Shown here piece by piece: positions 13,768-47,755 of a stretch of 55,918 nucleotides of DNA; within the stretch, counting starts at the first letter, position 1, and each line of letters starts with the position of its first letter. The notes below the pieces were generated by a model. It saw nothing but the letters and a program-made list of their open reading frames with translations, had not been told where the DNA came from and did no database searches. The position numbers and the translations under genes are program-made. The DNA is from Candidatus Woesearchaeota archaeon (lineage in GTDB: Archaea > Nanobdellota > Nanobdellia > Pacearchaeales > UBA284): positions 1 through 55,918 of the forward strand of contig CAZRGF010000006.1 in assembly GCA_964599615.1 (NCBI GenBank), read 5' to 3'.

Positions 13768-13812
13768 AAAGCTATCAGAAAGCTTTTTATATAGTGTTTT
13801 TTTAAGATAAAG

Positions 13813-30502: not shown

Positions 30503-30529
30503 AGTTAATTTAAATAAAATAAGTAAAAG

Positions 30530-30573
30530 GTTTTGCATGAAAATGGGCGCATTTTCACAATGTTGTGCAAAAC
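30530..30573. repeat. Bulged-hairpin element, copy A
   Basis: GTTTTGCA-TGAAAATG-ggcg-CATTTTCA-caatgttg-TGCAAAAC. Confidence 0.8.
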
Positions 30574-30601
30574 AATTACACAAAAAGCACATATCAATAA
30601 A

Positions 30602-31039
30602 ATGGAAGAAAAAATAAAATACGGGTTGGTTCATGAGATTCCAAGCCAGAAATTCATCATTGCTTTGGCTGAAAAACTAAAAGCAATGGAAGAGTTTAAG
30701 ACGCCTGAATGGGCAGAATTTGTAAAAACAGGGAGATCTAAAGAAAGGGTCCCTGAAAATGATGATTGGTGGTATGTAAGAGCTGCTAGCATATTAAGGA
30801 CAGTTTATGTTCAAGGAGTAGTTGGGGTCTCAAGATTAAGGAGCAAGTATGGTTCAAGAAAAAATAGGGGGATGAGACCTGAAAAATTTTATAAATCTTC
30901 TGGAAAAATCATCAGAGTCATTCTGCAACAAGCTGGAAAAGCGGGTTTTGTAGAACATATTAAAGAAAAGAGAACAGGAAGAAGATTGACTAAAAAAGGA
31001 TTGAACTTTCTTGAAAGTTTAGCCAAGACTCTGAAGTAA
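30602..31039 (+). CDS. rps19e: 30S ribosomal protein eS19
   Basis: PEWAEFVKTG..KER.P..DWWYVRAASILR; ATG 30602 preferred over TTG 30533. Confidence 0.96.
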   Translation: MEEKIKYGLVHEIPSQKFIIALAEKLKAMEEFKTPEWAEFVKTGRSKERVPENDDWWYVRAASILRTVYVQGVVGVSRLRSKYGSRKNRGMRPEKFYKSSGKIIRVILQQAGKAGFVEHIKEKRTGRRLTKKGLNFLESLAKTLK

Positions 31040-31053
31040 ATATAGGAGTTAAA

Positions 31054-31317
31054 ATGGATGGCGAAGGGGAAGCTGAAAAACTTACAGAACAAATTTTGAG
31101 TCTAGAGCGAGTAGCTAAGACCATGATGACCAGAGAAGCTATTTCTAGATATGGTAATCTCAAGATGGCACATACTGAAACTGCAATCAAAGCAATAGCT
31201 ATGATTGCCCAGGCTGTTCAAACAGGACAAGTCAAAGAGCAACTTACAGACGAGCAATTCAAGGAGCTTTTAAGGGAAATACAGAATAATAAAAAACAAT
31301 TTACTTTCAGGAAATAA
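31054..31317 (+). CDS. PDCD5-family DNA-binding protein
   Basis: MTREAISRYGNLKMAH..LTDEQFKELL; conserved position after rps19e. Confidence 0.85.
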   Translation: MDGEGEAEKLTEQILSLERVAKTMMTREAISRYGNLKMAHTETAIKAIAMIAQAVQTGQVKEQLTDEQFKELLREIQNNKKQFTFRK

Positions 31318-31318
31318 A

Positions 31319-31678
31319 ATGCCATTAGCAAAGCTTTATGAAAAAACAGACATAACCTGGATTTTTGACGAACATGTTGATGGTTCAAAAGTTAATTCAG
31401 CTTATGATTTTCTAGCTACAATGGTAAGAGAACATTCTGAAGGAATTGAGATAAATAATTTAGTTGACGCATTTTCAAGGGTAGGTGTGTTAGGAACCAA
31501 ACAAGCTAGTTATGTTCTAGACCGGATTTATGCCAAAAATCTTACAGAAAAAAAATTAGAGTTCTGCGCTTTAGAAAAAAGTGTTCGAGGAAAGTATAAT
31601 GGCATAGTTTATGTTTCTCCTGGCAAAAAAAGGACTTTTTACAATAAAATCCAAAATCCAGAAGCTTTAAAAGGGTAA
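31319..31678 (+). CDS. Hypothetical protein
   Basis: 119-aa ORF tightly packed in the operon. Confidence 0.55.
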   Translation: MPLAKLYEKTDITWIFDEHVDGSKVNSAYDFLATMVREHSEGIEINNLVDAFSRVGVLGTKQASYVLDRIYAKNLTEKKLEFCALEKSVRGKYNGIVYVSPGKKRTFYNKIQNPEALKG

Positions 31679-31694
31679 AAATCAAGAAAATACT

Positions 31695-31967
31695 ATGGCA
31701 CGCTATAAAACACAAGTAAAGAAATTGAGATTAGGAAAACAAGGGAAAAGGACAAAGTGGGCACCATTTTGGGTTATTCCCAAAGCTTGTGGAAAAGGCA
31801 AGAGAGTACATCCTTCTTATTTAACTAGAGTCAAGAGATCTTGGAGAAGAACAAGAATCAAAACTAAACTTAAGACAAAGGCAATGAGAAGACCAAATAT
31901 TGAGTTCAAGCCAGGAAAAATAAAAAAGAAATATAATCAAAGACCTAAAAACCAAGGGCATAAATAA
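31695..31967 (+). CDS. rpl39e: 50S ribosomal protein eL39 with C-terminal extension
   Basis: MARYK..KKLRL..P.WVI.K..RSWRRT; lies upstream of eL31. Confidence 0.85.
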   Translation: MARYKTQVKKLRLGKQGKRTKWAPFWVIPKACGKGKRVHPSYLTRVKRSWRRTRIKTKLKTKAMRRPNIEFKPGKIKKKYNQRPKNQGHK

Positions 31968-32009
31968 AGTTAGAGGTAAAATAATACCCCTAATCCATAA
32001 ACAAAATGC

Positions 32010-32048
32010 GCAAGACAACGTTGTGTTGATTGAAATCAACAGTCTTGC
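32010..32048. repeat. Bulged-hairpin element, copy B (inverted relative to A)
   Basis: GCAAGAC-aacgttg-TGTTGAT-tgaa-ATCAACA-GTCTTGC. Confidence 0.8.
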
Positions 32049-32116
32049 AAGATAATTAAAACACATAAAGATATAACACATAAAAACTCACTAAAAATTG
32101 AAAACTCAAGATAAAC

Positions 32117-32746
32117 ATGGCAGAGAAAAAAGAAAAAACAAAAATAGAGAAGAAAACAAAGTCTGAAAGAATTGAAAGGATTTATACTATTCCATTAAGA
32201 AAAGAATGGCTTAAGGCTCCGAAGTACAAAAGAGCTAAAAAGACAATCAGGGCAATAAAAGAATTTCTTGTAAAACACATGAAGATTTATGACCGAGATC
32301 TAGACAAGATAAAAGTTGATCCCTGGATTAACCGAGCTATTTGGAGCAGAGGAATAAAAAATGTTCCACATAAGATAATTGTCAAGGCAGTCAAAGAAGA
32401 TGATGAAGTGAGAACAGAATTAATCGGCTTGCCAAGGAATTTCAAATCAGAAGATGAATTTTTCAAGAAGAAGATAGAAAAAGAAAAGAAAAAAGAGATG
32501 GAAAACAAGAAGAAAGCTGAAGAAAAGAAAAGAGCCTTAGAAAAATTAGCAGAAGAGAAGAAGAAAGCTGAAGCAAAAAAAGAAGAAGAAAAAGGCATTG
32601 AAGAAAAACTTGATGACCAAAAGAAAAAAGAAGAAGAAAAAGAACTTCATAGTGAAAAAGAAGTGAAACATGAATATCAGCATGTGGGGCACGAAGTTAA
32701 AGGACAAGTTAAGGCTGCTGTACATAAGACAAACACTAAGAAGTAA
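32117..32746 (+). CDS. rpl31e: 50S ribosomal protein eL31 with Lys/Glu-rich extension
   Basis: ERIYTIPLR..KRAKK.I..IKEF..KHMK..IWSRG. Confidence 0.95.
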   Translation: MAEKKEKTKIEKKTKSERIERIYTIPLRKEWLKAPKYKRAKKTIRAIKEFLVKHMKIYDRDLDKIKVDPWINRAIWSRGIKNVPHKIIVKAVKEDDEVRTELIGLPRNFKSEDEFFKKKIEKEKKKEMENKKKAEEKKRALEKLAEEKKKAEAKKEEEKGIEEKLDDQKKKEEEKELHSEKEVKHEYQHVGHEVKGQVKAAVHKTNTKK

Positions 32747-32783
32747 TTCTTAAAATTTATAAGCTTGGTTTTTATTTATTATC

Positions 32784-33500
32784 ATGGAAACTTTGTCTAC
32801 CTTAAAGCAAGATTTGAATAAACTGAAAAATTCTGAAAGAGCAAAGCAATGCATGAGATATTTCAAGACAGCGAAAGGGGAATATGGGGAAGGAGATATT
32901 TTTATTGGATTAACTTCATCAGAGCAAAAAGAAATTGCAAAAAAATATCTTGATTTATGTTTTGGGGATATACAAAAACTACTGGATTCTGAAATTCATG
33001 AAGAAAGACAGATATCCTTAATTATATTAAGGAAAAATTTTGAAAAAACTAGGGATGAAAAAAAAAGAAAAAATATATTCAGTCTGTACCTAAAAAATGC
33101 CCATAAGGGCAATATAAATAACTGGGATTTGGTCGATTGTTCCACCCCCACCATTATAGGGGGTTTTTTGATTGATAAAGACAGAGAAATTCTCTATAAA
33201 CTTGCAAAATCCAAGAATTTGTGGGAAAAAAGAATCTCTGTGCTTGCTACATTTGCTTTTATCCGCGAGAATGATTTTAAAGATTCCTTAAAGATTGCAG
33301 AAATCCTCTTAAATGATAAACATGATTTGATTCACAAGGCTGTTGGCTGGATGTTAAGAGAAATCGGAAAAAGAAATCAGGATAAAGAAGAAAAATTCTT
33401 GAAAAAGCACTACAAGAAGATGCCGAGAACAATGTTGCGATATGCAATAGAACGTTTTGATGAAAAGAAGAGAAAAGATTACTTGAATTCTAAGATATAA
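32784..33500 (+). CDS. DNA alkylation repair protein (AlkD-like)
   Basis: YFKT..GEYGEGD, NNWDLVD, HKAVGWMLRE.GK, MPRTMLRYAIE. Confidence 0.92.
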   Translation: METLSTLKQDLNKLKNSERAKQCMRYFKTAKGEYGEGDIFIGLTSSEQKEIAKKYLDLCFGDIQKLLDSEIHEERQISLIILRKNFEKTRDEKKRKNIFSLYLKNAHKGNINNWDLVDCSTPTIIGGFLIDKDREILYKLAKSKNLWEKRISVLATFAFIRENDFKDSLKIAEILLNDKHDLIHKAVGWMLREIGKRNQDKEEKFLKKHYKKMPRTMLRYAIERFDEKKRKDYLNSKI

Positions 33501-33540
33501 AAACTTATAAAACTCTTTTTGTTAGTTTTTGGACTTAAAA

Positions 33541-34914
33541 ATGGCCATATACACAGTTTTTAGAGGTACGGGAAGTTGCATTCCAGACATAGTCTGGAAA
33601 AACACTGATTTCAAAGACGCTGTTTTTTACGGGCTAGATGGAAAAATTGTTGATAAATCAACTCAACAAATTATCGGTGATTTTAGAGACAAGACAAAAG
33701 TGGGAATAGAAGAGAGAAGGTATGCTCGGCCAGATCAAAGCGCTTCGGATCTCGGTTTCATTGCTGCAGAAAGAACTTTAGAGTCATCTGGCTTTGATAG
33801 AGATACCATAGGTTGCATTTCTGTGGCCCATAATTTCGAAAATACTTACACACTAGGGTCAAAACTAGATCTAGTTCCAAGTTTTGCTGCGAGAATAAAG
33901 AGAGAATTAGGAATAGATGTTCCTGGAATGATAGCTTATGATATTGTGACAAATTGGGAGGATTTGAGAAGAATAAAAGATGGCTATGGCATAGCATCTG
34001 GTGAAAAATCACTTGTAGTCGAACTTGACCAAACCCCGACAGATGGGAATCTTTCTGGAGTTTATGAGATGGCTAGAGAAAAGTTAGCTGACTTAGGGAT
34101 TGATAAAGAAGGTTTAGAAAAAATTGTGGTTGTGCATAAAGGCATTCCAAACATGGCTGGGAAACTGAAGACAAGATTAGGGCTCAGACCAGAAACAGTT
34201 GCTTATTCAATTATTTTTGGTTGTCCTGGGTGGCTTCAAGCGGTTATACAAACAGATCAATATTTCAAACTCGGAAAAGCTAAAAGAGCATTAGTTATAG
34301 GAGCAGAAACACTGTCAAGGGTTTCAGACCCGCATGATATGGATCGGATGATATATAGTGATGGTGGTGGAGGTTGGGGTGTTGAAGCTATTGAAAGCGA
34401 GCATCCTGTGGGGATAGTGTCCTATGCTGTGAGATCTGATGCTCTGGAATATGCTTATTTATTGAAAATGGGGAAATCTTATAATCCAAATTTTCAATGC
34501 GATGGATTGTTTCTGAAAATGGAGGGGCCTAAGCTTTTCAAATATGCTGCAAAAACTGTTCCACATGTTATTAAAGAAAGCCTTGACAAAGCTAGGATGA
34601 CAATAGACAATGTGAATATGGGTTTGTTTCATCAAGCTAATCAAAGATTAGACGAGGCTATGCTGCACGGGACTTATAGGCTGTATGGGAAAACACCAGA
34701 CCAAATTCCAAAAAATGTTATGCCTCTGACAATTCCATGGCTTGGAAACAATTCAGTTGTGACTTTGCCAATGGCAAGTGATTTGATTGCAAAAGGAACA
34801 GACACAAGATTAAAGGATTATTCTTTTAGAAAGGGAGATGTTATCTTGTTTGCTTCTGTCGGTGCTGGTATGAATAGCAATGCTGTGGTGTACATAGTTC
34901 CTCCAAAAGATTAA
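33541..34914 (+). CDS. 3-oxoacyl-ACP synthase III (FabH-like) with internal duplication
   Basis: GTGS..P, GIEERR, FGCPGW, FHQAN, GNNS, FASVGAGM. Confidence 0.88.
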   Translation: MAIYTVFRGTGSCIPDIVWKNTDFKDAVFYGLDGKIVDKSTQQIIGDFRDKTKVGIEERRYARPDQSASDLGFIAAERTLESSGFDRDTIGCISVAHNFENTYTLGSKLDLVPSFAARIKRELGIDVPGMIAYDIVTNWEDLRRIKDGYGIASGEKSLVVELDQTPTDGNLSGVYEMAREKLADLGIDKEGLEKIVVVHKGIPNMAGKLKTRLGLRPETVAYSIIFGCPGWLQAVIQTDQYFKLGKAKRALVIGAETLSRVSDPHDMDRMIYSDGGGGWGVEAIESEHPVGIVSYAVRSDALEYAYLLKMGKSYNPNFQCDGLFLKMEGPKLFKYAAKTVPHVIKESLDKARMTIDNVNMGLFHQANQRLDEAMLHGTYRLYGKTPDQIPKNVMPLTIPWLGNNSVVTLPMASDLIAKGTDTRLKDYSFRKGDVILFASVGAGMNSNAVVYIVPPKD

Positions 34915-34939
34915 ATACACATAAATTTCTCTTTTAAAC

Positions 34940-35707
34940 ATGGAAGGAGTATTAATTTTAAATAAACCTGCTGGAATAACAAGCCATGATGCTTGTGATA
35001 AAGTCAAGACTATCTTGAATATAAAGAAAGTAGGACATGCAGGAACACTAGACCCCATGGTCACAGGAGTTTTAGTGATTGCTTTGGAAAATTCTACTAA
35101 AGCATTAAGATTGTTTAATGGTTTGAATAAGACTTATCAAGGAATCGGGCATTTGCATGAAGATGTTCCTTTAGAAAAATTAAAACAAGTAATTCAAAAA
35201 AAATTCATGGGAAAAATAAAACAAACCCCGCCAAAAAGGTCAAGAGTCAAGAGAGAAGAAAGAGAAAGAGAGATATTTGAGTTTAATATTTTGAAAAAAG
35301 AAGGAAAAAACTTTGAATTTTTGGTTTCGTGCCAGGCAGGAACTTATATCAGAAAGCTTATAGACGACTTGGGAAAAGAAATGAATATAGGTGCTCACAT
35401 GGCTTCTTTGCACAGGACTATGCAAGGGCCTTTTTCTGATAAAGAATCTATTAAAGTAGAGGACTTGAAAGATGGGAAGAAATTAGAAAAATCATTGATT
35501 TCTTTAGAGCAAGCTGCCAAAAGATTAAACACTAAAATATTGGATGTTGATGATAAGGAAGAACAAGACCTTAAATTCGGAAAATCTTTGAAAAGGGACC
35601 TTTATCTAAAAGAAGGCGAGATTGGTGTTGCGATCAATTCAAAGAATCAAGTTGTTGCACTTATTAAAAGAGAAGATAATCTGATAAGGACTGAAAGATT
35701 CATCTAA
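34940..35707 (+). CDS. TruB/Cbf5 family pseudouridine synthase
   Basis: NKPAGITSH, GHAGTLDP, CQAGTYIRKL. Confidence 0.92.
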   Translation: MEGVLILNKPAGITSHDACDKVKTILNIKKVGHAGTLDPMVTGVLVIALENSTKALRLFNGLNKTYQGIGHLHEDVPLEKLKQVIQKKFMGKIKQTPPKRSRVKREEREREIFEFNILKKEGKNFEFLVSCQAGTYIRKLIDDLGKEMNIGAHMASLHRTMQGPFSDKESIKVEDLKDGKKLEKSLISLEQAAKRLNTKILDVDDKEEQDLKFGKSLKRDLYLKEGEIGVAINSKNQVVALIKREDNLIRTERFI

Positions 35708-35722
35708 TTAGAGGTTTTTAGC

Positions 35723-36340
35723 ATGTTAAAACAAAAAATTCAACAATTAGATTATTCTGTTAAAAAACAGATAGGCAAAAAAATCGAAGAGTTTAATCAC
35801 AAAAATCTTTCAAACAAAGAAAGATTCTTAGAATTATGTTTTTGTCTGTTAGTAGCTAATTGTTCTTTAGACAGGAGCTTGAAAAATTGGGAAAATAATA
35901 AAACCCTTTTTCTTGAGGGGAATCAAAGAGAATTATCCGAAAAATTAAAGAAATTAGGGCAGAGATTCCATAATAATAAAACTGCTTATATCATTGAAGC
36001 AAGAAAACATTTTGATGGATTGAACAATTATCTAAAAACTAAAGAAGAATTTGAATTAAGAGAATTTCTAGCAAGCCATATCAGGGGCTTGGGCATGAAA
36101 GAATCTTCTCATTTTCTAAGGAATCAAGGTTATAAGAATTTCGCAATTCTTGACAGACATGTTCTGAAGACTTTGAAAGAAAACAAGTTTATTGAAGAAA
36201 TCCCTAAAACCTTAACTAAAAAGAAATATCTTCAAATTGAAGATAAGCTTTCAGAACTTGCTAAATCTCTTAATACGACCCAGGCCCATCTTGATCTTTA
36301 TTTATTCTACTTAGATTCTGGAAGAATTTGTCAAAAATAA
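35723..36340 (+). CDS. ogg: 8-oxoguanine DNA glycosylase/AP lyase
   Basis: ELCFCLL, GLGMKESSHFLRN, AILDRHV. Confidence 0.9.
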   Translation: MLKQKIQQLDYSVKKQIGKKIEEFNHKNLSNKERFLELCFCLLVANCSLDRSLKNWENNKTLFLEGNQRELSEKLKKLGQRFHNNKTAYIIEARKHFDGLNNYLKTKEEFELREFLASHIRGLGMKESSHFLRNQGYKNFAILDRHVLKTLKENKFIEEIPKTLTKKKYLQIEDKLSELAKSLNTTQAHLDLYLFYLDSGRICQK

Positions 36341-36550
36341 TAGACATTCTGACAAATTTTTTATGACTTTGCTTTAGACTCTTAACTTCGTCATCTACAA
36401 GTTTAATAACCTAATCCTGATTTTTAATTGAATTTTCTTCGGGTTTTTGAAATTCTAAAAAGATTTTCTATAAAAACAATTCCTGCTATGGGTCATTACA
36501 CATGCAGATATAAGAACTTGGCGAATTAGTTTATTAATTATGTCAGAAAA

Positions 36551-36790
36551 TTAAGCACTTGTTTTTTTCGCTTCTCTCGCTTCTGCTTTATCTTCTTTCT
36601 TTTTTGCAAAAGCATCGTTTCTCTCTTTCTTCTCAATTTGTCTTGCCCATTTGATTTTCTTAGGGTCTCTTTTCATTCTGAAGTTTCTCCTGCATTTACT
36701 CGAACAGAAGTAGATTACACGACCATCACTGTACACAAAGATTATTCCCTGGCCTGGTTGTTGTGGCTTTGAGCAGAAAACACATTTCAT
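36551..36790 (-). CDS. rpl24e: 50S ribosomal protein eL24
   Basis: CVFC..PGQG..DG...FCSSKC..R.P.K.KW. Confidence 0.95.
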   Translation of the reverse strand: MKCVFCSKPQQPGQGIIFVYSDGRVIYFCSSKCRRNFRMKRDPKKIKWARQIEKKERNDAFAKKKEDKAEAREAKKTSA

Positions 36791-36791
36791 C

Positions 36792-37082
36792 TTAAGTGAA
36801 AGCTCCTTTCATTATCTTGGTCCTTATTCTTCTTGCTTCAATTTGGGTCTCTCTTAATATAAGAACATCTTTTAATTTTACAGGGCCTTTGACATTTCTT
36901 CTTATTGTCTTGCCTTGTTCAGTTCCACCAATTACTTTTGCCAGGACTTGAGTTAATTCTCCCCTGAATCCTGTTCTTCCTAGAATTTCTTCAACTTCTG
37001 CAGGGCATGGTTCTCTTGAAAATCTTTCTATTCTCTTTTCCTGTTTTTGATCTTGACCTTGTTGGCCTTGTTGTCTTGCCAT
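36792..37082 (-). CDS. rps28e: 30S ribosomal protein eS28
   Basis: AEV..ILGRTG..GELTQV..RRNVKGPV..D.L.L.E. Confidence 0.95.
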   Translation of the reverse strand: MARQQGQQGQDQKQEKRIERFSREPCPAEVEEILGRTGFRGELTQVLAKVIGGTEQGKTIRRNVKGPVKLKDVLILRETQIEARRIRTKIMKGAFT

Positions 37083-37115
37083 TTTATATTTTAAGATTTA
37101 ACTTGCATCAAAAAT

Positions 37116-37460
37116 TTACTTCTTTGCCCTTTCTTTTTTTCTTTCTGGATCGAGTTTTATTCCAAGTTCAGCAAAAGCTTTTATACCATCTCCTGGTTCA
37201 ATTACAGCTACTGCAGTGCAAGCAACGCCTATGCCTGCTGAAATGCCTAGCTTTTTTCTACTATCCACTGCCTGACATGCAATGCCTTTCTCTTGGCACA
37301 GTACTGGCAAATGTTGAACAATTTCTTTTGGAGAAACATCTTCTGCATAAACAACTAATTTAGCTGTTGCTCTTTCTATTGCCTTGGTTACTTCATTAAC
37401 GCCCTTATCAATCTTGCCTGTTTTTCTTGCAAGTTCTACTATTTCATATGGAGAAACCAT
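37116..37460 (-). CDS. rpl7ae: 50S ribosomal protein L7Ae (eL8)
   Basis: KGVNEVTKAIER, AEDVSP.EIV.HLP.LC; GGAGGT SD. Confidence 0.96.
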   Translation of the reverse strand: MVSPYEIVELARKTGKIDKGVNEVTKAIERATAKLVVYAEDVSPKEIVQHLPVLCQEKGIACQAVDSRKKLGISAGIGVACTAVAVIEPGDGIKAFAELGIKLDPERKKERAKK

Positions 37461-37673
37461 GTTTAACCTCCCTCATGTTTAATTTGGTCATTGGTTTTAT
37501 TATCTTATATTTGAATTTTATTTATGTATATGCTGAGAAAAATAGGTTTAAAAAGCTATCGCCCAAAAGAAGAGTTTTCTTTCAAGGAATATTATATAAA
37601 TAATGAAAATCTTTGATTTTTATAATGCAGAAAAAGGTCTTCTTTTTCTAGCATATGGGAGATTATTCAAAAG

Positions 37674-38231: not shown

Positions 38232-39208
38232 TTTTTCCAGGTTACATTTACTTGGTCAGTTCTTTGATTAGGATTTATGTCTGCTAGATTGGGACTTATG
38301 TTTATGCCTGATTTGAACATTTTTTGTCCTAGATATGCAATCATCGCAGCATTATCTACAAGAAATTGTTTTTCAGGAACAAAGCATTTTGCTTTTCTTT
38401 CTTTGCACATAATTTGGGCCATTTCTTGGAGTCTTGAATTGCAAGCTACTCCTCCCCCTAATAAAAGCTCTTTCTTACCAAGATGGGCCATTGCTCTTTC
38501 AGCTACTTCCATTAGCATTGCAAAGCTGGTTTCTTGTAATGAAAATGAAAGGTCTTCAAGTTTGTACTTTTTTGAGTCTAACTTTTGTTTTAAATTAGTT
38601 AACAAACCTGCAAAAGCAACATCCATACCTTTGACAGAATAGGGGAGTTCAATTAAATTTGAAGATTTTGAAGCAAGTTGTTCTATACACTTGCCTCCTG
38701 GAAATCCCAGTCCAGAGTATCTTGCAAAAGTGTCTATGAAATTTCCTATGCCCATGTCAAGAGTTTCGCCAAAAATCCTGTACTTGCCTGCAGCATATGC
38801 AATCACTTGGGTGTTTGCCCCAGAACAATATAATAAAACAGGGTCTTTTGCTTTAGTGATTTCACCAATTTCAAGGTGCGCTATGCAATGGTTTACAGGA
38901 ACTAAGGGGAGGTTAATTTCTTTGGAAAGTTCTTTAGCAAATTTTAATCCTTGCAATAAACAAGGAGCTAATCCAGGGGCGTTTGAAACTGCTATCAAAT
39001 CAATGTCTTTAAGTGAAATTTTGGCTTCTTTGAGAGATTGTTTGAGTAGATTATCGCAAATCTTTTTATGATGTTTAGCTGCTTCAACGGGGATTATGCC
39101 TCCTTTTTCAGTGGTATACATATCTCTTAGATTGCATAAAAAAGTTTTGTCTTTTAAAATCGATATACCAAAAGTATGGGCAGTTGATTCTATGCCAAGT
39201 GTTATCAT
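38228..39208 (-). CDS. kae1: tRNA N6-adenosine threonylcarbamoyltransferase Kae1
   Basis: LGIESTAHT, VNHCIAHLE, SGANTQ, GETLD, DNAAMIA. Confidence 0.96.
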   Translation of the reverse strand: MITLGIESTAHTFGISILKDKTFLCNLRDMYTTEKGGIIPVEAAKHHKKICDNLLKQSLKEAKISLKDIDLIAVSNAPGLAPCLLQGLKFAKELSKEINLPLVPVNHCIAHLEIGEITKAKDPVLLYCSGANTQVIAYAAGKYRIFGETLDMGIGNFIDTFARYSGLGFPGGKCIEQLASKSSNLIELPYSVKGMDVAFAGLLTNLKQKLDSKKYKLEDLSFSLQETSFAMLMEVAERAMAHLGKKELLLGGGVACNSRLQEMAQIMCKERKAKCFVPEKQFLVDNAAMIAYLGQKMFKSGINISPNLADINPNQRTDQVNVTWKN

Positions 39209-39482
39209 GGGTAATTAAAGAATTATCCGTTTTTATTGGTTGTGGTTTGTACTTACAATTTTTATGTCCTGGATTATCAGCGTAGAGGCAGAAATCATCA
39301 GATTGATGGCAAGAACCGGTTATATAGTGGGTTCTTTCATAATAATGGATTGGCTGTCTGACAAAACCGCAAAGATTCCCTTCGTGACTTAGTTCTGATA
39401 TTAACTCCAGTTGTTCTTTAGAAACTTGGATTTGTTTTATTATTGGTTCTCTTTTATGATAATGCTTTTTCTTTCTGGTCAT
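39108..39482 (-). CDS. Hypothetical Cys/His-rich protein
   Basis: Start coupled (ATGA) to the upstream stop; overlaps kae1 by 101 nt. Confidence 0.4.
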   Translation of the reverse strand: MTRKKKHYHKREPIIKQIQVSKEQLELISELSHEGNLCGFVRQPIHYYERTHYITGSCHQSDDFCLYADNPGHKNCKYKPQPIKTDNSLITHDNTWHRINCPYFWYIDFKRQNFFMQSKRYVYH

Positions 39483-40216
39483 TTTACTTTTTCGTAGTCT
39501 TCTTTACTTCCAATATCTATCCAGTTTCCTGAAAACGGGAATGCATAAATATCTTGTTTTTCAAATAATTCAATTATAAAATAAGTCAGACTAAAACTTG
39601 GATTTAACTTGTTTTCTTGCTTCGATTTTTCGTAGAAGAGTTTCATTTTTTCTAAATCTTGTTTTTTGATTAAATATATCCCAGTAACAGCCAAGTCTGA
39701 TTTGGCTTCTGGTGGTTTTTCTTCAATTCCAATTATTCTGTTTTCAGAATCAGTTTCAACTATCCCAAATTTTTTAGCATCTTCTTTATTCGCTAGTTTA
39801 TAACAAGCTATTGATGTTGCTTGTTTCTTTTCAACGAATTCGATGAATTTGTTTAAATCAAGTGAAAAGATATTGTCTCCGTATAGGACTAAGAGGTCGT
39901 CATCTATTTTATTCTGATTTATTCCAATTAAGCAGTCATGTAAGGCACCTTTTTGATCTTCAACCGAGATAGAACCAGTATCTACAATTTCAATTTTCTT
40001 AGATGTTTTTTGATTTGACTGCCACCAAGCAAAATTTGTATAAAATCTGTTGTTTGAAAGTACGTAGATTGTGTCAATCGCTTTCACACTATCTAATTTT
40101 TCAATAAGATAATTGAGGATGGGCATGCCTTTTATAGGCAATAGGGCTTTTGGTTGGCTTGCTGTCAGGGGTAGAAGCCGAGTTCCGTATCCCGCAACTG
40201 CGATAATTACCTTCAT
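39479..40216 (-). CDS. Sugar-phosphate nucleotidyltransferase
   Basis: AGYGTRLLPLT...PKALLPI, GDN, EEKP, WIDIG. Confidence 0.92.
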   Translation of the reverse strand: MKVIIAVAGYGTRLLPLTASQPKALLPIKGMPILNYLIEKLDSVKAIDTIYVLSNNRFYTNFAWWQSNQKTSKKIEIVDTGSISVEDQKGALHDCLIGINQNKIDDDLLVLYGDNIFSLDLNKFIEFVEKKQATSIACYKLANKEDAKKFGIVETDSENRIIGIEEKPPEAKSDLAVTGIYLIKKQDLEKMKLFYEKSKQENKLNPSFSLTYFIIELFEKQDIYAFPFSGNWIDIGSKEDYEKVK

Positions 40217-40746
40217 TTTAAGTTAAATTTTTTATTCTTTTTAATCTTTAGCATGTATTGTTTGATTTCTTCTGGACTTAAGTAGCCTCTTTTGTAAACG
40301 AGGGCTAATCTCTTAGGAAAAAATTTCTTTTTCCTGTTTAATGCTGTTAATAGGAGCTCTTTTCCATAGCCTTTCTTGATAGTTTGAATGTCTGTTTGTC
40401 TTTCATTTTCTCTTGCTGGATTTTTTCCAAAAATCCAGCTGATATCCAGTTTTATCCCAAAAATCAATAATTTTAATAAACCCATCTTGGTCTTTTTAAA
40501 AAACTCAAGATGACAGAGCTCATGAGCAAGAATTCCGGTCTTTAGATTCTTATCTTGTTTCCTGACTTTTGTGCTTATAAAAATGAGGTAAGTATTCCAC
40601 GAAGGGTAGTTTGCTACAAATCCAGAAGCCCAGAATATTATCTTGGGATATTCAACAACGATTATCTTCTTGTCTCTTAGAGAAGGAAAGGACTTTTTCA
40701 CAAGATTATTGATAATTTCCCGATACTCTTTGACATATTTATTCAT
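40213..40746 (-). CDS. Zincin-like metallopeptidase
   Basis: GILAHELCH plus downstream NERQTD. Confidence 0.7.
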   Translation of the reverse strand: MNKYVKEYREIINNLVKKSFPSLRDKKIIVVEYPKIIFWASGFVANYPSWNTYLIFISTKVRKQDKNLKTGILAHELCHLEFFKKTKMGLLKLLIFGIKLDISWIFGKNPARENERQTDIQTIKKGYGKELLLTALNRKKKFFPKRLALVYKRGYLSPEEIKQYMLKIKKNKKFNLK

Positions 40747-40958
40747 GCTAAAAGAAAAAGAAAGAGATTTATAATTTTAACTGTAATAAAGTAGACTCTT
40801 TAAGTTGTCATTTGAAATCTAGTTTTATTGTTTTCAAGAGGGTATTCTTAACATAATTTACATAAAAGGCAGATATAATTTAACCGAAGTAATTAATGAG
40901 ACTTGGGGAATATATAAAAATAAATAAATTAAAATAAAAAAATAAATTTTGAGGAGAT

Positions 40959-41087
40959 TTACTTCTTCTTCTTTTTCTTTTTTCCGCCTCTGGCCATTTT
41001 AGCTTCACATACGTTTCCTTTTCCGTCTACGTAGTAAAGATATCCTGGTTTCCTTTTGACAACGTTTTTTGCAATAACGCTTCCCAT
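40959..41087 (-). CDS. Small basic CC1-like chromatin/DNA-binding protein (42 aa; not in ORF track)
   Basis: Manual translation MGSVIAKNVVKRKPGYLYYVDGKGNVCEAKMARGGKKKKKKK; AAGGAGG SD upstream. Confidence 0.8.
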   Translation of the reverse strand: MGSVIAKNVVKRKPGYLYYVDGKGNVCEAKMARGGKKKKKKK

Positions 41088-41227
41088 TTTTTTCCTCCTT
41101 TATTTTATTTTTAAAATTTATCTTAATAGTCAGAGAGCAATTATGTATTTAAACCTTTCGTTCTCGACGGAAGTTATTAGTCAATGACAACTTTATCCAC
41201 GGTGTTTTTGTTTAGTTAGATTTAAAA

Positions 41228-41593
41228 ATGAAAAAAAACTATATCCTAATGGGAGCAAAAAAATATGAGGCATTTTCTTTTAAGTATCAGGGCAGAGACG
41301 TGAAAATCAAAGCAAAGACTTGTAAGGGGTTTTGGAGAAAGTTTTATGGAAAAATGTTCACTTTTAATAAAGAACCATTAATATTTGAGTTTCGAGAACA
41401 GATTTTAGCTGAAATCCACATGTTGTTCGTTTTTATGCCCCTGTTGGTTGTCTGGTTTGACGCTAAAAAGAAAGTTACTAAGATCAAAATCATGAAACCA
41501 TTTATTTCTTTTGAAAAATCTAGGGCAAAGTATGTTATTGAGATTCCTTTAAACAACAAGTTAATAAGAGACTTTGAACATTTTGAAGACTAA
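41228..41593 (+). CDS. DUF192 family protein
   Basis: IHMLFVFMPL.VVW.D, AKYVIEIP. Confidence 0.85.
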   Translation: MKKNYILMGAKKYEAFSFKYQGRDVKIKAKTCKGFWRKFYGKMFTFNKEPLIFEFREQILAEIHMLFVFMPLLVVWFDAKKKVTKIKIMKPFISFEKSRAKYVIEIPLNNKLIRDFEHFED

Positions 41594-41634
41594 AAAAATT
41601 TAAATACCAAAAAGAACTAACCTACTTAAGAAAA

Positions 41635-42540
41635 ATGAGGTGGTTATGGTTTGGGATTTTAGCTGCAATCCTTTTTGGATTATGGGGATTATTTGATAAA
41701 CTTTCAGGTGCATTAAGTCCATTTACTTCTAATCTTATTTTGTATACTTCTGCTTTGATTGTAACCTTGATAATGCTTGTTTTTAGTAAAAAAATCAAAT
41801 TTACTAAATATGCTTTTTTATCAGGAATTTTTGCTGGAATGGGTAATTTCTTCATTCTTTATTCCTTGTTAAAAAATAAGTTAATATTAGTTTTTCCATT
41901 TGTTTCTTTGGCAGGAGCAGTTTCTTTTTTAATTATTTGGATTTTTGAAAAACCAAAATATAATCAAAAACAAAAAATATTTGCAGTAATTGGGTTAATT
42001 CTTTGCTTCTTAGGAATACTGCTGGTTGCAACTGGTTCAGAAGGACTTCTAAATTTTGTAAAAGAATTAGCTATAAGTCCACTTTATCTCTTGTTCTCCC
42101 TCTTTGTTTTAATTGGATTTACTCTTTGGATTTTTTTAACATATAAGTCTGTTTCAAAAGAAGATATAAGTTCAGAAAATTCTACTTTTTTAAGTGTCCT
42201 TGGTTCTTTTGTTGTAGCGGTATTATCGGTTTTAATTTTAAATTATTCTTCTATAACTAGTTTTCAGTTTTTCAATATTCGCAGTTATATCTACCCAATT
42301 TTAGCTGGAATTTGTGTTGCATTTGGAATTTTGTTAACTTTTAGTGCATTTAAGGGAACAACGACCAAATCTAAATTACAAGAAGCAATTGTGGCAATTT
42401 TAGCAAATGCTGAATTAATCCCCCTATTATTCTTGTCTTATTTTATCTTGCATGAGTGGGTCTGGGAAGGCTTTGTAGGAACGATAATTGTTTTAGCAGG
42501 GCTTTTTTCTTTACATTTTGCGGAAATGATAAAGAAATAA
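41635..42540 (+). CDS. EamA/DMT family transporter
   Basis: About 10 TM helices in two repeats. Confidence 0.75.
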   Translation: MRWLWFGILAAILFGLWGLFDKLSGALSPFTSNLILYTSALIVTLIMLVFSKKIKFTKYAFLSGIFAGMGNFFILYSLLKNKLILVFPFVSLAGAVSFLIIWIFEKPKYNQKQKIFAVIGLILCFLGILLVATGSEGLLNFVKELAISPLYLLFSLFVLIGFTLWIFLTYKSVSKEDISSENSTFLSVLGSFVVAVLSVLILNYSSITSFQFFNIRSYIYPILAGICVAFGILLTFSAFKGTTTKSKLQEAIVAILANAELIPLLFLSYFILHEWVWEGFVGTIIVLAGLFSLHFAEMIKK

Positions 42541-42589
42541 GAAGTTAATGTTTATAACGGGAGTTAGACTGATAAGTAATATTAATTAG

Positions 42590-42619
42590 ACAAGACACTT
42601 TGTGCTGATGCAGTCTTGT
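42590..42619. repeat. Bulged-hairpin element, copy C (degenerate)
   Basis: ACAAGAC-actttg-TGC-tgat-GCA-GTCTTGT; outer stem nearly identical to copy B. Confidence 0.55.
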
Positions 42620-42700
42620 TTTTCTATGAGAACAAAGCGCAGGATAGTAACTAGAACGCAGAGGAGATTTAAGAGGGAGATTATTATTTATTATATCCCT

Positions 42701-43195
42701 TTAGCCTTCAAAATCCAATAAAGAATTCTGGTTTTCTGAAAGATAATCGGATTTCTTAGTTTCTTCTTCTTCGAGATGAACTGGTGGTTTAGGGACTGGT
42801 CTTGGTTCTGTGAAAAATCTTTCATTTCTTAGATACTCCCTGTAAAGTTTGTCTACCATTCTCCTATTAACAAAATCATGATGTCTAAAACCCCCGCCAA
42901 AGGTTTTTGGGATATGGGCCAATTCGTGAATTAAGGTTTTCATTTGATCTTCTTCTGACATTTTATCAAATTTCTCTGAAAGGATTTCAATAACATAGGC
43001 TGGCTCAATTTCAAGTACTTGTTGCAGGATTTTTGGCAGAGTGTGGCATCTTGCAATTATGTTTCTTGAAGAAGATTCATGGCTTCTGATGCAGTATACT
43101 CTGTTCAGGTTTACATGGTTCATACCAAGAACAACACATATTTTCTTGACATTAAACTTAATGTCCAGAGCTTCGTTATATTTTATTCCTGCCAT
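42701..43195 (-). CDS. Putative metallopeptidase
   Basis: ARC..L, YVIE..SEKFD, LIHELAHIP..F.GG.R.H. Confidence 0.8.
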   Translation of the reverse strand: MAGIKYNEALDIKFNVKKICVVLGMNHVNLNRVYCIRSHESSSRNIIARCHTLPKILQQVLEIEPAYVIEILSEKFDKMSEEDQMKTLIHELAHIPKTFGGGFRHHDFVNRRMVDKLYREYLRNERFFTEPRPVPKPPVHLEEEETKKSDYLSENQNSLLDFEG

Positions 43196-43273
43196 CTTAC
43201 AGCTTTATAACTGCCTCCTTTAATATTTATTCTACGGGAAGAAGGGGTTTTAAGGATTGTGGTTTTCTTGTGA

Positions 43274-44131
43274 CTATTTTTGTTCGCCCCAAAAATCTAG
43301 ATGTTTTACTTTTCCTTGTTTGAGCTCTATTAGTGTATTTACATCAGAACCATAACCTGAATTAAGACAAATTGTTCTCTTTATCCTGTCTTTTCCAAAA
43401 TGCTCGTGCATATGCCCTCCGATGGATATTAGTGGCTGATATTTTTCAATCATTTTCCTTGCGACAAGAGATCCGTAATGTAGTCCGTATCTGTTTGAGA
43501 ATTTTTCAGTTATCTCATCAAGCCTTGTATTGTAAGGTACGTTATGTGTTAAAAAGATAACAGGTTTTTCTGATCTTCTAAAAAGAAGATCTATTCTTTT
43601 TAAGAGATGTTGATATTCTCGTCTCTTTCTTTCTAGCTCTCCTTTAGTTTTTTCTTTTAAAGTGGTTTTGTCTTGAGGATATTCTGGACCAGAAGTTATG
43701 CCAAAACCAATTATTTGTGTTTCTTGACCTAAATTTCTTATTTTTCTATGTACGTTCACAATATTTTCCAAATCTTTTATTAATTCTTTGTAGTATCTTC
43801 TTCTTTTCCAATCCCAACTTTTAGTTGTTTGTGCCCAGTCCCAATTTCCAGGAACAACATATACGGGGACATCAAAAGAATTCAAAAATTCCAAAATTTT
43901 TCTACCATCTTTAACTGATTTTTGCATCATTTGTTTAGCATTTGATTTGCCAACAATATCATACCAATTCTTTTTGTACTGGGGATTAGAATTTTTTTCA
44001 TTTAAGACCTGAAAGATGTATTTTTTGAAACTATCTGAACAAAAGTCCCCCGGAGCAATGATTGCATCAAATCCTTTAAAGTGGATTTTTGGTTTATTTC
44101 CATGCAAATCACCAATAACTAAGATCTTCAT
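43274..44131 (-). CDS. Calcineurin-like metallophosphoesterase
   Basis: GDLHG, GD, PGNWD, THNVP, GHMHE. Confidence 0.9.
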   Translation of the reverse strand: MKILVIGDLHGNKPKIHFKGFDAIIAPGDFCSDSFKKYIFQVLNEKNSNPQYKKNWYDIVGKSNAKQMMQKSVKDGRKILEFLNSFDVPVYVVPGNWDWAQTTKSWDWKRRRYYKELIKDLENIVNVHRKIRNLGQETQIIGFGITSGPEYPQDKTTLKEKTKGELERKRREYQHLLKRIDLLFRRSEKPVIFLTHNVPYNTRLDEITEKFSNRYGLHYGSLVARKMIEKYQPLISIGGHMHEHFGKDRIKRTICLNSGYGSDVNTLIELKQGKVKHLDFWGEQK

Positions 44132-44132
44132 T

Positions 44133-44855
44133 TTATTTTATTTCCTCTGCGTTTTTATATGTTTCGAGGAAAAGCTGGTGCATGACTTTCACAAAGGCAA
44201 GGTCTTTGATCAACATAACTGTATTTGACTTGATTAAAGAGATTAAAACTTCTTTATCATCTATTATTGAAATAGCAACACCCTCATTATCAAATTTCCT
44301 TATGTTTTTATGTATTGTAGTCCAATCTTTAACATTTTTTTCAGTTTCTTTATCATGTCTTACTAAAGCTTTAAATTCCACCCCTTTTTTCTTTTCTTTT
44401 ATAACTTCTCTTACCCATTCAGGGTTAAATTCTGCTGTCCATCTTATACTATAATCATATTTTCTTGGTTTTCTATGCTCTTTTATCATCTTGTAGAATG
44501 CTTTTTTTCCATATCCCAGTGTGACAGCTTCTTTTTCCTTTGTTTCATAAAATCGTTTAAGTTTTTTTACTATTTCTTTTGCTTTGTCTAATCTCTCTTG
44601 TTTTTTGTGGATATAATCAAGAAGATGTTCTGGGTTTGTTGCAACAAATCTTTTATTTTTCTCCGGAATTATTTTAACCAGGCCTTTGTTTATCAAAGAA
44701 TTCAGGACATTATAGATTTTTCCATAAGGAACAGAACTTTTTGAACTTGTTTCCATGGAACTTAGCTTTCCAAATTCAATTAAAGTTTGATAAACTTTTG
44801 ATTCATTTTTTGAAAGTCCTAGGACTTCATAGTCTTCGTAGTTTTGTTCTTCCAT
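44133..44855 (-). CDS. TrmB family transcriptional regulator
   Basis: LGLSKNESKVY..L..VPYGKIYNVLNSL..KGLV. Confidence 0.88.
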   Translation of the reverse strand: MEEQNYEDYEVLGLSKNESKVYQTLIEFGKLSSMETSSKSSVPYGKIYNVLNSLINKGLVKIIPEKNKRFVATNPEHLLDYIHKKQERLDKAKEIVKKLKRFYETKEKEAVTLGYGKKAFYKMIKEHRKPRKYDYSIRWTAEFNPEWVREVIKEKKKGVEFKALVRHDKETEKNVKDWTTIHKNIRKFDNEGVAISIIDDKEVLISLIKSNTVMLIKDLAFVKVMHQLFLETYKNAEEIK

Positions 44856-44891
44856 GTTTGTTTAACCTCTTGAGATTTATAAACTTTATTA

Positions 44892-44915
44892 GTACAACCC
44901 CCCCAGGGGTTGCAC
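44892..44915. promoter_or_regulatory. Putative operator palindrome
   Basis: GTACAACCCC-ccca-GGGGTTGCAC between two divergent TATA-like boxes. Confidence 0.5.
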
Positions 44916-44989
44916 AAATATAAATAGGGTTTTTTCTTATGTATTATGTAATCATTAAGTAGTGATTACAAATAAACCAAGAGATAAAA

Positions 44990-45850
44990 ATGTTACAAGA
45001 CAAACTGCTTACTCTGGAGTCTCGTTTTCGAGAAGAAATTGCGAGATTGGGATTTGTAGAGTCAGGAACCTTAATCGGAAGGCCTGTTCAGGAAAGGGCA
45101 CTGGATAGAGTGCTTGACCTAGATCATGTCCTTGTGGTTAGAGCGATGGAGTTGGGCAAATATCATAAGATTGAAGATGTTTTAGAAAATATCAAAGATG
45201 GAACTTCATCTGGATTAGATGTCCAATATGCTATTTTTGATGGGCCTATGAAACCTCATTCAGATAAAGAAAATGAGGTTTTTTTCCATATTATTTTGCA
45301 TAGTCCTGAGACTTATACTTCAAGTCCTTTATTATTGTGCAAGAATTCATGGCAATCTGAAAAACAGTTCTTAGGAAAATCTTTAGATGAATATCAAAGA
45401 TTTCCTGAGGGTGTTACAAAAAAGATGCTGTTTGAAAGCGGTTTAGGACTAGACTCTTTATTGAAGATGGTTTCTAGCAATAGTTCTTTGTATTGTGGCT
45501 GGGAACAATCGGGAAATTTGATTCAACCAAAAGTAGGAGAAAAAGAATTTAATGAAATTGATGAAAGACTTGAATTATATTTTTATTCTATTTTAAGAGC
45601 TGCAAGCAATACCACCCGGCTTTTTATAGGAGATAATAAAGAGGGGATTGACTTGAAAATGTGCGCAAATTTTCAGAGAACTTGTGGAGATTTTAAATAT
45701 TCTAGAATGCCCAGAGAAATTTTTGTAAACAAGAGATTGCTCAGAAATAAAGTTTTAATCTTGTCACAAGGTTTTGTTGACAAATACCAACAAAAAGCAA
45801 TGGACTTTTTGTTGAACTTAAGAGAATATGTGGAAAAAAGAACTAGTTAA
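44990..45850 (+). CDS. Hypothetical protein (possible nucleotidyltransferase-like fold)
   Basis: 286 aa; G-x14-DLDHVLVV is weakly Pol-beta-like. Confidence 0.5.
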   Translation: MLQDKLLTLESRFREEIARLGFVESGTLIGRPVQERALDRVLDLDHVLVVRAMELGKYHKIEDVLENIKDGTSSGLDVQYAIFDGPMKPHSDKENEVFFHIILHSPETYTSSPLLLCKNSWQSEKQFLGKSLDEYQRFPEGVTKKMLFESGLGLDSLLKMVSSNSSLYCGWEQSGNLIQPKVGEKEFNEIDERLELYFYSILRAASNTTRLFIGDNKEGIDLKMCANFQRTCGDFKYSRMPREIFVNKRLLRNKVLILSQGFVDKYQQKAMDFLLNLREYVEKRTS

Positions 45851-45872
45851 GTTTATAATTGATTTTATTTAG

Positions 45873-45918
45873 TTGGTTCGGTGCAAGACGTAACTCAGTG
45901 CACAACGTTGCGAACCAA
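45873..45918. repeat. Bulged-hairpin element, copy D
   Basis: TTGGTTCG-GTGCA-13nt-TGCAC-aacgttg-CGAACCAA. Confidence 0.85.
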
Positions 45919-45976
45919 ATTTAAGGTTATTATTACTTATAGCCTTATAACTGCGCTGAGGCTTTTCAATAAAAAT

Positions 45977-46189
45977 TTAATCATTTATCTCGACAACTTT
46001 TTCTCTGTTAGTCAGTCCTCTTACAATCTTGACTTGAGAACTCGAGACTTTAAAATGTTTTGCTAAAAGCTTTATAAGTTCGATGTTAGCTTTGTTGTCT
46101 TTGGGCGGAGATTTCAAGAAAGCTGTGTTTGATTGCAAGTCAAATTCAGATTTTTTCGAATTTGGCTTGACTTTTATTGTTAAAAACAT
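45977..46189 (-). CDS. DUF167 (YggU-like) protein
   Basis: KVKPNS, SPP.DNKAN.ELI..LA, I..G...REK. Confidence 0.9.
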   Translation of the reverse strand: MFLTIKVKPNSKKSEFDLQSNTAFLKSPPKDNKANIELIKLLAKHFKVSSSQVKIVRGLTNREKVVEIND

Positions 46190-46223
46190 TTTTGAGTTAT
46201 GTTCATAAATAATTTTTGTTAGT

Positions 46224-46261
46224 TGGCTCAGTGAATTTAGGGTTCACAACGTTGTGAGCCA
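46224..46261. repeat. Bulged-hairpin element, copy E
   Basis: TGGCTCA-GTGAA-tttaggg-TTCAC-aacgttg-TGAGCCA. Confidence 0.85.
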
Positions 46262-46291
46262 CATTTGTTTTAACTTATAGAGTTTTTGGAT

Positions 46292-47602: not shown

Positions 47603-47755
47603 AAGTAGGAGGTAAATAATAATATATACTAGCGAACAAAAAATCAAGTGATGATTTTTTGCAAATTGCTAATTAGAAAGTGCCTTGCTATTAAAATTTA
47701 ACACATACAGATTAAATAAAAACAAAAAATAAAGAATATACAAAAAACACATAAA

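Follow-up and report, generated by a model that had tools for sequence, protein, structure and literature searches.

A dispersed family of bulged hairpin repeats restricted to one genus of tiny lake archaea

A 55,918-nt stretch of DNA from a Candidatus Woesearchaeota archaeon (contig CAZRGF010000006.1 of assembly GCA_964599615.1; the whole stretch is referred to here as the window) carries in its intergenic spacers four copies of a short bulged hairpin built around a palindromic core. These copies belong to a family of repeats with covarying stems which is restricted to one genus of tiny lake archaea, and whose members have been gained, lost and replaced at orthologous sites between the species of that genus. 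[quoted passage not shown]

The genome to which the window belongs (G000; 1.32 Mb in 51 contigs, 33% G+C, 89% complete) was compared with those of five other species of the same genus (G001 to G005). All of the genomes used are incomplete metagenome bins, from which repeats and transposases are often missing; the six of this genus are 77-89% complete and, being kin, are not independent of one another. Gene calls were crude, consisting of ATG-started open reading frames (ORFs) taken greedily by length.

Identification and distribution of the repeat family

The 12-mer CACAACGTTGTG occurs with at most one mismatch at four sites in the window (30556, 32014, 45901, and 46245; copies A to D), where 0.01 would be expected and 0 of 100 shuffles reach four, in agreement with the original prediction, which had been made from the letters of the window alone. 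At up to three mismatches the excess is gone, with 20 matches in the window vs. 11.8 expected. Folded as single-stranded DNA, all four sites form two stems, the outer one of 7-8 bp and the inner one of 5-8 bp, with a bulge of 7-8 nt on the 3' side only (z-scores of -3.9, -3.4, -2.4, and -3.2, with 0, 0, 4, and 4 of 200 shuffles folding as well). This is the arrangement of two stems and a one-sided bulge that had been described, and the stem sequences quoted for the sites had been read correctly. The + strand carries copies A, C, and D in forward orientation and the - strand copy B, so that A and B do lie in opposite orientation within one + strand gene run, as claimed.

At up to one mismatch the 12-mer gives 14 sites in G000 vs. 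4 for a reversed control pattern, and a scan of this genome for the bulged two-stem fold returned 23 sites with the CAACGTTG core vs. 0-2 for control cores of the same G+C content; the same scan with AT-only cores returned 11-14 sites. A search for further copies had been proposed along with the original prediction, and a covariance model built from 29 copies found 32 matches in G000 at E <= 1 and 85 in the five congeners (21 in G001, 30 in G002, 18 in G003, 1 in G004, and 15 in G005). The exact 8-mer CAACGTTG occurs 25 times in G000, with 22 occurrences in model-defined copies, one in a hairpin-like site (C2:33674) and two in coding sequence; because all 23 intergenic occurrences are found in hairpins, core and hairpin are inseparable. 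Avoidance of AACGTT as a restriction site was considered and ruled out, the hexamer being present 119 times in G000 against an expected 114.

Outside the genus, the covariance model found 0 copies in 35 genomes, 18 of them from other genera of the family and 17 from other families of the order (these genomes are 59-100% complete and, as kin, not independent). A strict 23-base pattern was present in 25 metagenome contigs and in 0 viral contigs, and since the scores are identical the metagenome contigs largely overlap the six genomes. Protein similarity places the lineage in Candidatus Pacearchaeota, and the public sequencing runs that hold the stretch are six DNA runs of lake-water metagenomes, with no RNA run listed. 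Rfam gave 0 matches at the gathering threshold for the window and 0 at E <= 1 for 20 copy-bearing loci, and a literature search restricted to open-access papers found none describing the hairpin repeat; the earlier statement that this is not a described family agrees with the Rfam result.

Structure and covariation

The conserved heart of the repeat is a hairpin of about 40 nt in which an outer stem of 6-8 bp carries an inner stem-loop. The junction TTTTG/GTG...CAC/AACGTTG/CAAAA is invariant, with AACGTTG unpaired on one side. In an alignment of 105 copies from the six genomes the core is the most conserved part, each of its positions being conserved in 88-104 copies, and the loops and the remaining stem positions vary freely.

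Stem pairing is kept despite this variation, as had been proposed for the window copies. A MAFFT alignment of 29 copies, made without reference to any structure, has 72.5% of its stem cells paired vs. 53.1% after shuffling (0 of 500 shuffles reach the observed value) and 29-41% when the partners are slid. In the 105-copy alignment, which was fitted to the covariance model and drawn from 100 of 107 source loci, 89.2% of stem cells pair vs. 66.3% in shuffles, with slid structures giving 28-50%; there are 331 double-sided changes vs. 113 in shuffles, and 13 of the 14 pairs covary. Among the 1434 stem cells of this alignment we counted 1255 Watson-Crick pairs, 24 G:U pairs, 38 A:C pairs and 117 other mismatches. 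Since the pairing is of the Watson-Crick type with no excess of G:U, a DNA-level or strand-symmetric element fits these data better than an RNA, and we infer that DNA is the working form of the repeat.

Three subfamilies, differing in stems and flanks, can be told apart: S1 (GRWTTTG... or GTTTTGCA...), S2 (GCAAGAC...GTCTTGCGCATTT) and S3 (TTTATTTAGT-GGTTC...). AT-rich arms extend the hairpin to a larger unit of about 90-100 nt, of which it forms the core. A GAGGTAAGT box on one side, or its complement ACTTACCTC on the other, closes many of these units. In 94 copies that could be parsed, a GAGGTAAGT-like box (at most two mismatches) lies 21-30 nt upstream in 47 and a ACTTACCTC-like box 10-19 nt downstream in 28, with the inverse arrangement in four copies each. 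One intragenic copy in G003 has an imperfect inverted end of about 15 nt. Neither box is a general signal of the genome: a ACTTACCTC-like sequence at -20 to -10 as a general promoter feature was ruled out (10 of 1502 genes), as were GAGGTAAGT and ACTTACCTC as a general signal after stop codons, where the k-mers of the motifs show no positional peak. Inverted hairpin pairs separated by a few bases were also observed in G000 (C12:16288-16368, C12:18777-18860, and upstream of C7:4056); these consist of a short reversed hairpin followed by an S1-type hairpin and recall REP doublets such as bacterial interspersed mosaic elements (BIMEs) and REPINs.

Insertion and turnover of copies

The strongest single evidence for insertion is a hairpin unit that lies in frame within the gene of a MiaB/RimO-like methylthiotransferase (G000 C14:22322-23851, outside the window). 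The encoded protein has about 83 extra residues relative to solved RimO, and the hairpin itself encodes LGSQRC.... At this codon position G003 and G005 have a hairpin and G002 has one that is flipped and decayed. The insert in G001 lacks a hairpin, the G004 protein is about nine residues longer at this point, and two other genera have no insert at all.

Between species of the genus, orthologous sites were seen both with and without a copy (presence/absence polymorphism). One filled and empty pair involves the G002 copy at C4:20554, which takes up about 112 nt where G005 has 14 nt; the empty site in G005 is an operon-internal junction with a Shine-Dalgarno-like GAGGAGT-aaaa-ATG. The spacer upstream of the S19e gene, where copy A lies, has an S1 copy in G001 as in G000. 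In G003 an S2-type copy in reverse takes its place, G002 and G005 have unrelated sequence, and G004 has no spacer at all. Copies C and D, beside a DUF167 gene, have no counterpart in G004, G002, or G005, and the site of copy B holds a reversed S2 copy in G000 and a forward S1 copy in G002. On a larger scale, 49 congener copies have flanks that map to G000, and 11 of these lie within 100 nt of a G000 copy, often one of a different subfamily or orientation; decayed or divergent hairpins were seen at some of the G000 sites called "empty". The nearest neighbor of a copy is in the same genome for 35 of the 105 copies, vs. 22 expected.

In the S19e spacers of G002 and G005, a direct repeat ATGCGCT(C)TTTA takes the place of the hairpin, and it resembles the GCGCATTT tail of the S2 subfamily.

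Gene context and promoters

Coding sequence makes up about 87% of G000, and 29 of its 30 listed copies are intergenic; most of the listed copies lie 10-76 nt past a stop codon. The copies are scattered over at least 20 contigs, with five or six between divergent genes. All 13 S1 copies of G000 are sense to the next gene, with the 3' foot of the hairpin 25-37 nt from the ATG in 12 of them, and S2 and S3 copies are mostly antisense to neighboring genes. The orientation of the repeat, which had been described as free, is free relative to the chromosome but within a subfamily is tied to the neighboring gene. Across the six genomes, an ATG frame is open on the bulge side of 42 of the 94 parsed copies, starting 22-37 nt from the foot in 34 of the 42; a further 32 copies have such a frame on the other side, at a looser distance of 19-59 nt.

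This spacing can be set beside the genome-wide promoter signal. The signal in G000 is of the leaderless type (AA at -33/-32, TT at -28/-27, A-rich at -24 to -22 and at -4 to -2), and a Shine-Dalgarno signal is almost absent. Given the distance from S1 hairpins to the ATG and the position of this signal, the 3' outer stem of S1 (CAAAAYC) and the following AATTACAC fall at the position of the TFB recognition element (BRE) and TATA box, suggesting that S1 units may donate part of a promoter. S1 units resemble one another up to the start codon, and their core lies at about -50 to -38 from the ATG, directly upstream of the genome-wide BRE/TATA position, whereas the core of S2 and S3 is on the far side of the hairpin, at a variable distance of 60-100 nt from the start codon. 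A matrix made from G000 promoters gave background scores (-1.0 to -1.6) for starts from -15 to +14 nt of the 5' foot and peaks which point outward on both sides, at 17-19 nt and 27-29 nt from the feet of the hairpin; this matrix is weak (mean of 1.05 at true promoters vs. -1.12 elsewhere) and the copies are not independent. A promoter of the repeat's own that transcribes into the hairpin was rejected, only background scores of this weak matrix being found there.

No T-tract follows the hairpin on the sense strand, where A-rich sequence follows instead (AATTACAC... for S1, ACTAAATAAA... for S3 copies in reverse), which bears out the earlier claim that the sites are not terminators. The neighboring genes are mixed, including those for S19e, S24e, L15/L18e, L31e, gyrase A, a class II tRNA synthetase, NrdR, archease and two TrmB-like regulators, among others, and a common regulon was rejected on account of this functional mixture.

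Copies and related sites in the window

Copy A, an S1 hairpin (GTTTTGCA...TGCAAAAC) with the bulge CAATGTTG, occupies 30530..30573 on the + strand (40.5 bits, E 1.2e-6) and is sense to the S19e gene, whose ATG at 30602 is 28 nt past the 3' foot of the hairpin. Judged by the likeness among S1 copies, the extended unit would span 30500..30601 on the + strand. It starts with TAGAGTTAAT, a GAGGTAAGT-like box overlapping the stop codon of an upstream YhbY-like gene, continues with an A-rich spacer and the hairpin, and then runs as AATTACACAAAAAG...AAA up to the S19e ATG, with its AATTACAC stretch at the position of the genome-wide TATA signal. Copy B, an S2 hairpin at 32009..32049 on the - strand (35.7 bits), is antisense to the flanking + strand genes, lying 41 nt past the gene of a 90-aa protein and 67 nt before the L31e gene. 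The two S3 copies are on the + strand. Copy C (45848..45918; 56.8 bits) lies between two convergent genes, its hairpin (45873-45918) being preceded by the conserved flank TAAGTTTATAATTGATTTTATTTAG (45848-45872). The unit of copy D (46194..46282; 49.1 bits; hairpin at 46224-46261) occupies nearly all of a 102-nt intergenic region; at its left end is GAGTTATGT (46194-46202), 4 nt away from the DUF167 start codon (- strand), and at its right end AACTTATAGAG (46272-46282).

A fifth, degenerate site had been proposed at 42590..42619 (- strand), in a convergent intergenic region. It folds like the others, with an outer stem of 7 bp, a bulge of 6 nt and an inner stem of 3 bp (ACAAGAC / TGCATCAGCA / CAAAGT / GTCTTGT; z of -2.6 and -2.9), and on its sequence it is probably a decayed copy of the GCAAGAC subfamily, S2; as the covariance model is silent there even at E <= 10, this assignment is plausible but without statistical support. 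A probable divergent relative of the unit at 47632..47669 (+ strand) has a GGAGGTAAAT box upstream and a perfect hairpin stem of 10 bp within a short outer stem; its bulge reads CAAA where the canonical one reads AACGTTG. The covariance model gives no match at this position, the corresponding site in G003 carries a canonical S1 copy, and 47632..47669 may represent a sister family or a decayed copy. A weak model match at 19815-19858 (19.4 bits, E 0.042), inside an ORF of 349 aa, was set aside as probably due to chance.

Proposed mechanism and points against it

Under the reading of an inserted, partly co-opted repeat, units would have been inserted as DNA into AT-rich spacers directly upstream of start codons, and at least once into coding sequence. 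The folded single strand, with the bulged junction as its specific feature, would be recognized by a putative DNA-binding or DNA-cleaving protein. Copies would then have been inherited vertically, with selection or conversion between copies keeping the Watson-Crick pairing as the loops, and sometimes the core, decay. Many copies would now adjoin or supply the BRE/TATA region of leaderless genes, and an insertion could give an operon-internal gene a promoter region of its own.

Several observations weigh against this reading. No target-site duplication is visible at the filled and empty G002/G005 site or at the intragenic site, the compared genomes being 70-88% identical in coding DNA, a divergence that could hide a short duplication. 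No genome contains two identical copies, and the closest within-genome pairs differ by 6-8%, so that recent transposition is not shown. Because both flank boxes coincide in only 9 of the 94 parsed copies, terminal inverted repeats are not established. The two strict G002/G005 orthologous pairs differ at 0 of 52 stem nucleotides vs. 33 of 320 flanking nucleotides; the same pairs do show changes in loop and core, and compensated changes are seen in looser orthologous pairs. Taken together, stem conservation, subfamily-tied orientation and the tight spacing to the ATG argue for a host function over a purely selfish element, and the conserved stems, fixed spacing and subfamily-specific orientation also show that the copies are not simply decaying junk. 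Finally, no mobilizing enzyme was identified among the families searched. The Y1 family was found in G000, G003, and G004 and in none of G001 (21 copies), G002 (30 copies), and G005 (15 copies), these genomes being 77-89% complete; the DDE families PF01609, PF13358, and PF00665 and the TnpB family PF07282 gave 0 matches in G000 (other transposase families were not searched); and none of the seven tyrosine recombinases (PF00589) of G000 adjoins a copy, the gene numbers of this family not tracking copy number.

Candidate partner proteins

The window holds no recombinase or HUH gene, as had been stated, and the matches in G000 lie on other contigs. The sole IS200-like Y1 HUH transposase gene (C9:49534-49866) runs off the end of its contig (C9:49474-49886) and has upstream of it two G+C-rich hairpins of no relation to the repeat, with no score of the covariance model in this locus above 11.9 bits (E 2.1). 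With these unrelated hairpins and with no co-occurrence between enzyme and repeats, the Y1 transposase was rejected as the partner, and the analogy to REP/HUH substrates that had been drawn for the sites holds in a functional sense only. An S2-type copy about 115 nt downstream of the Y1 gene of G003 (22.4 bits) is read as an ordinary intergenic neighbor. A parent autonomous element with the same ends was not found, either through the four transposase Pfam families in G000 or through the strict pattern in viral contigs.

The seven tyrosine-recombinase-like ORFs of G000 (C13:30732, C46:529, C11:661, C17:26579, C21:4098, C5:8764, and C17:18653) are divergent and encode 374-442 aa; they too were rejected, being not adjacent to copies and having counts unrelated to copy number. 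A XerA-type gene (about 280 aa), which nearly all relatives have, was not found in the G000 assembly. A TrmB-like protein of about 245 aa has 18 paralogues in G000 vs. 1-7 in the 40 relatives searched; two of their genes are in the window (13057-13770 and 44133-44855) and 16 elsewhere, and two of the genes are directly beside hairpin copies (C19:15122 and C7:42622). These regulators were rejected as specific binders since the family occurs widely and in numbers that bear no relation to copy number.

Alternative explanations

Given the position of S1 copies, CAACGTTG might be thought the duplex site of a homodimeric transcription factor, that is, an operator upstream of the promoters of a genus-specific regulon, with the potential to form a hairpin being secondary. 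The core is the most conserved part of the repeat and a perfect 8 bp palindrome (12-16 bp in some copies, e.g., TTCAC-AACGTT-GTGAA), which would account for either orientation working; the S1 core (-50 to -38) lies directly upstream of the BRE/TATA position, and two of the TrmB-family genes, with their 18 paralogues in G000, adjoin copies. Binding to a duplex, however, leaves the Watson-Crick pairing of two variable stems unexplained, and the 8-mer is never free-standing between genes, all 23 of its intergenic occurrences being in hairpins. In S2 and S3, moreover, the core is on the far side of the hairpin and its distance from the start codon is a variable 60-100 nt. Genes converge on copy C and on the fifth site, one copy is within coding sequence, the genes that would be served are functionally mixed, and TrmB counts are no guide to copy number (30 copies and 2 paralogues in G002). 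We regard an operator as unlikely. A similarly low probability attaches to a structured RNA, by which the hairpin would act in a 5' leader, a 3' untranslated region or a small RNA through exonuclease protection, processing or a protein bound to an AACGUUG bulge. Strong covariation is typical of RNA elements, S1 is always sense to the downstream gene (13 of 13 in G000), a T-rich stretch follows the hairpin in the forward direction in S2 and S3, and bacterial REP and MITE hairpins are described as acting in mRNA in excerpts of a review (PMC10969869). Yet G:U pairs are not in excess over A:C (24 vs. 38 of 1434 cells), about half of the copies are antisense to both neighboring genes, no promoter was seen with the weak matrix that would transcribe the whole hairpin, its peaks pointing outward instead, the S1 hairpins of this leaderless-type genome end at the expected BRE/TATA position, and Rfam gave no match even at E <= 1.

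The original prediction had compared the sites to integron attC sites, which a tyrosine recombinase would recombine in their folded single-stranded form. In keeping with this comparison, the hairpin is imperfect and has bases left unpaired, its core contains AAC/GTT, G000 has seven divergent tyrosine-recombinase genes, and copies C and D are in direct orientation around one small gene. The comparison did not hold up, however: copies of either orientation are spread through at least 20 contigs, amid ribosomal-protein genes and other housekeeping genes, they form no cassette array, no integrase lies beside any of them, the number of integrase genes does not follow copy number, and the DUF167 gene is without flanking copies in three congeners, making attC sites highly improbable. 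Hairpin-type terminators or insulators between transcription units would suit the intergenic position of 29 of the 30 listed G000 copies, most of them 10-76 nt past a stop codon, and a hairpin functions in either orientation. The sense-strand flank, though, is A-rich and not T-rich in all three subfamilies, the five or six copies between divergent genes have nothing to terminate, a simple terminator has no need of an invariant 7 nt bulge, and intrinsic termination in archaea is based on oligo-T rather than on hairpins; we consider this explanation very unlikely. A bolder version of insertion would have the bulged hairpin recombined or nicked by a new archaeal system for mobilizing single-stranded DNA, which moves cassettes of hairpin and leaderless promoter to positions upstream of start codons. 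We give this a small probability; if it were true, the enzyme would be neither a recognizable Y1 HUH transposase nor an integron integrase, and operons would have been rewired by it in streamlined DPANN genomes.

Comparison with known systems and significance

As an inserted, partly co-opted repeat, the family has its closest parallels among small palindromic repeats of bacteria. REP sequences, with their associated tyrosine transposases (RAYTs) and occurrences inside genes, and REPINs are described in excerpts of PMC3733652 and PMC6006769, from which the likenesses are evident: short (about 40 nt) imperfect extragenic palindromes in tens of dispersed copies, lineage-specific and divided into subfamilies, in either orientation and with a few inverted doublets (here G000 C12:16288-16368), with unpaired bases in the stem and occasionally located inside genes. 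The present repeat differs in its archaeal lineage and in having a conserved one-sided bulge of 7 nt rather than a GT[AG]G tag at the 5' foot. The consensus at that foot is (T/A/G)G(G/A/T)TTTT(G), without GTAG, and only some S3 copies begin with GTAG, GTGG, or GTTG. It differs further in that no RAYT is flanked by copies and in a copy number far below that of typical REP families. Neisserial Correia elements, in the portions of the MITE review that concern their promoters and RNase III processing (PMC10969869), are likewise small and non-autonomous, lie mostly upstream of genes, have promoter-like ends, change operon structure and may form hairpins. In the archaeal repeat, by contrast, we found no clear terminal inverted repeats, target-site duplication or parent insertion sequence, the promoter is a leaderless one of the BRE/TATA type, and the conserved core is the central bulged hairpin and not the termini. 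Among archaea, a high density of MITEs in some DPANN genomes is indicated by excerpts of PMC11602168, a paper that also lists conserved MITEs with a Woesearchaeota genome among those covered, and the hairpin origins of archaeal Rep proteins, as far as they are described in excerpts of PMC13107129, are not related to the hairpin repeat.

The unit in the methylthiotransferase gene, which lies in frame in a conserved enzyme gene, adds a peptide and keeps the frame, has a further parallel. Rickettsia palindromic elements insert in frame into genes, although the case found here is a single one and lineage and sequence differ. REPs inside genes are reported in PMC3733652. The likeness to integron attC is one of analogy only, namely folded single-strand hairpins in which unpaired bases outweigh stem sequence, and the present repeat is without cassette arrays or an adjacent integrase and is found in both orientations among core genes. 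TrmB-family regulators of archaea have palindromic operators upstream of the genes they control, such as the glycolytic motif of Thermococcales. Some copies share with these a palindrome of the CAC-N5/6-GTG type directly upstream of BRE/TATA, unlike them always within a covarying hairpin and at a position relative to the promoter that differs by subfamily.

Small dispersed palindromic repeats have been studied thoroughly in bacteria but barely in DPANN archaea, with their very small and densely packed genomes. In the genus studied here, one promoter-touching structured unit makes up most of as many as about 30 intergenic regions per genome (1 to 32 model matches in the six genomes), and these units adjoin genes for ribosomal proteins, gyrase and tRNA synthetases. 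The covariance model provides a simple marker for the genus in metagenomes, and the invariant bulged junction is a concrete bait for finding the protein that reads the hairpin. If the unit does move with promoter parts, it would give reduced genomes a direct means to split and rebuild operons.

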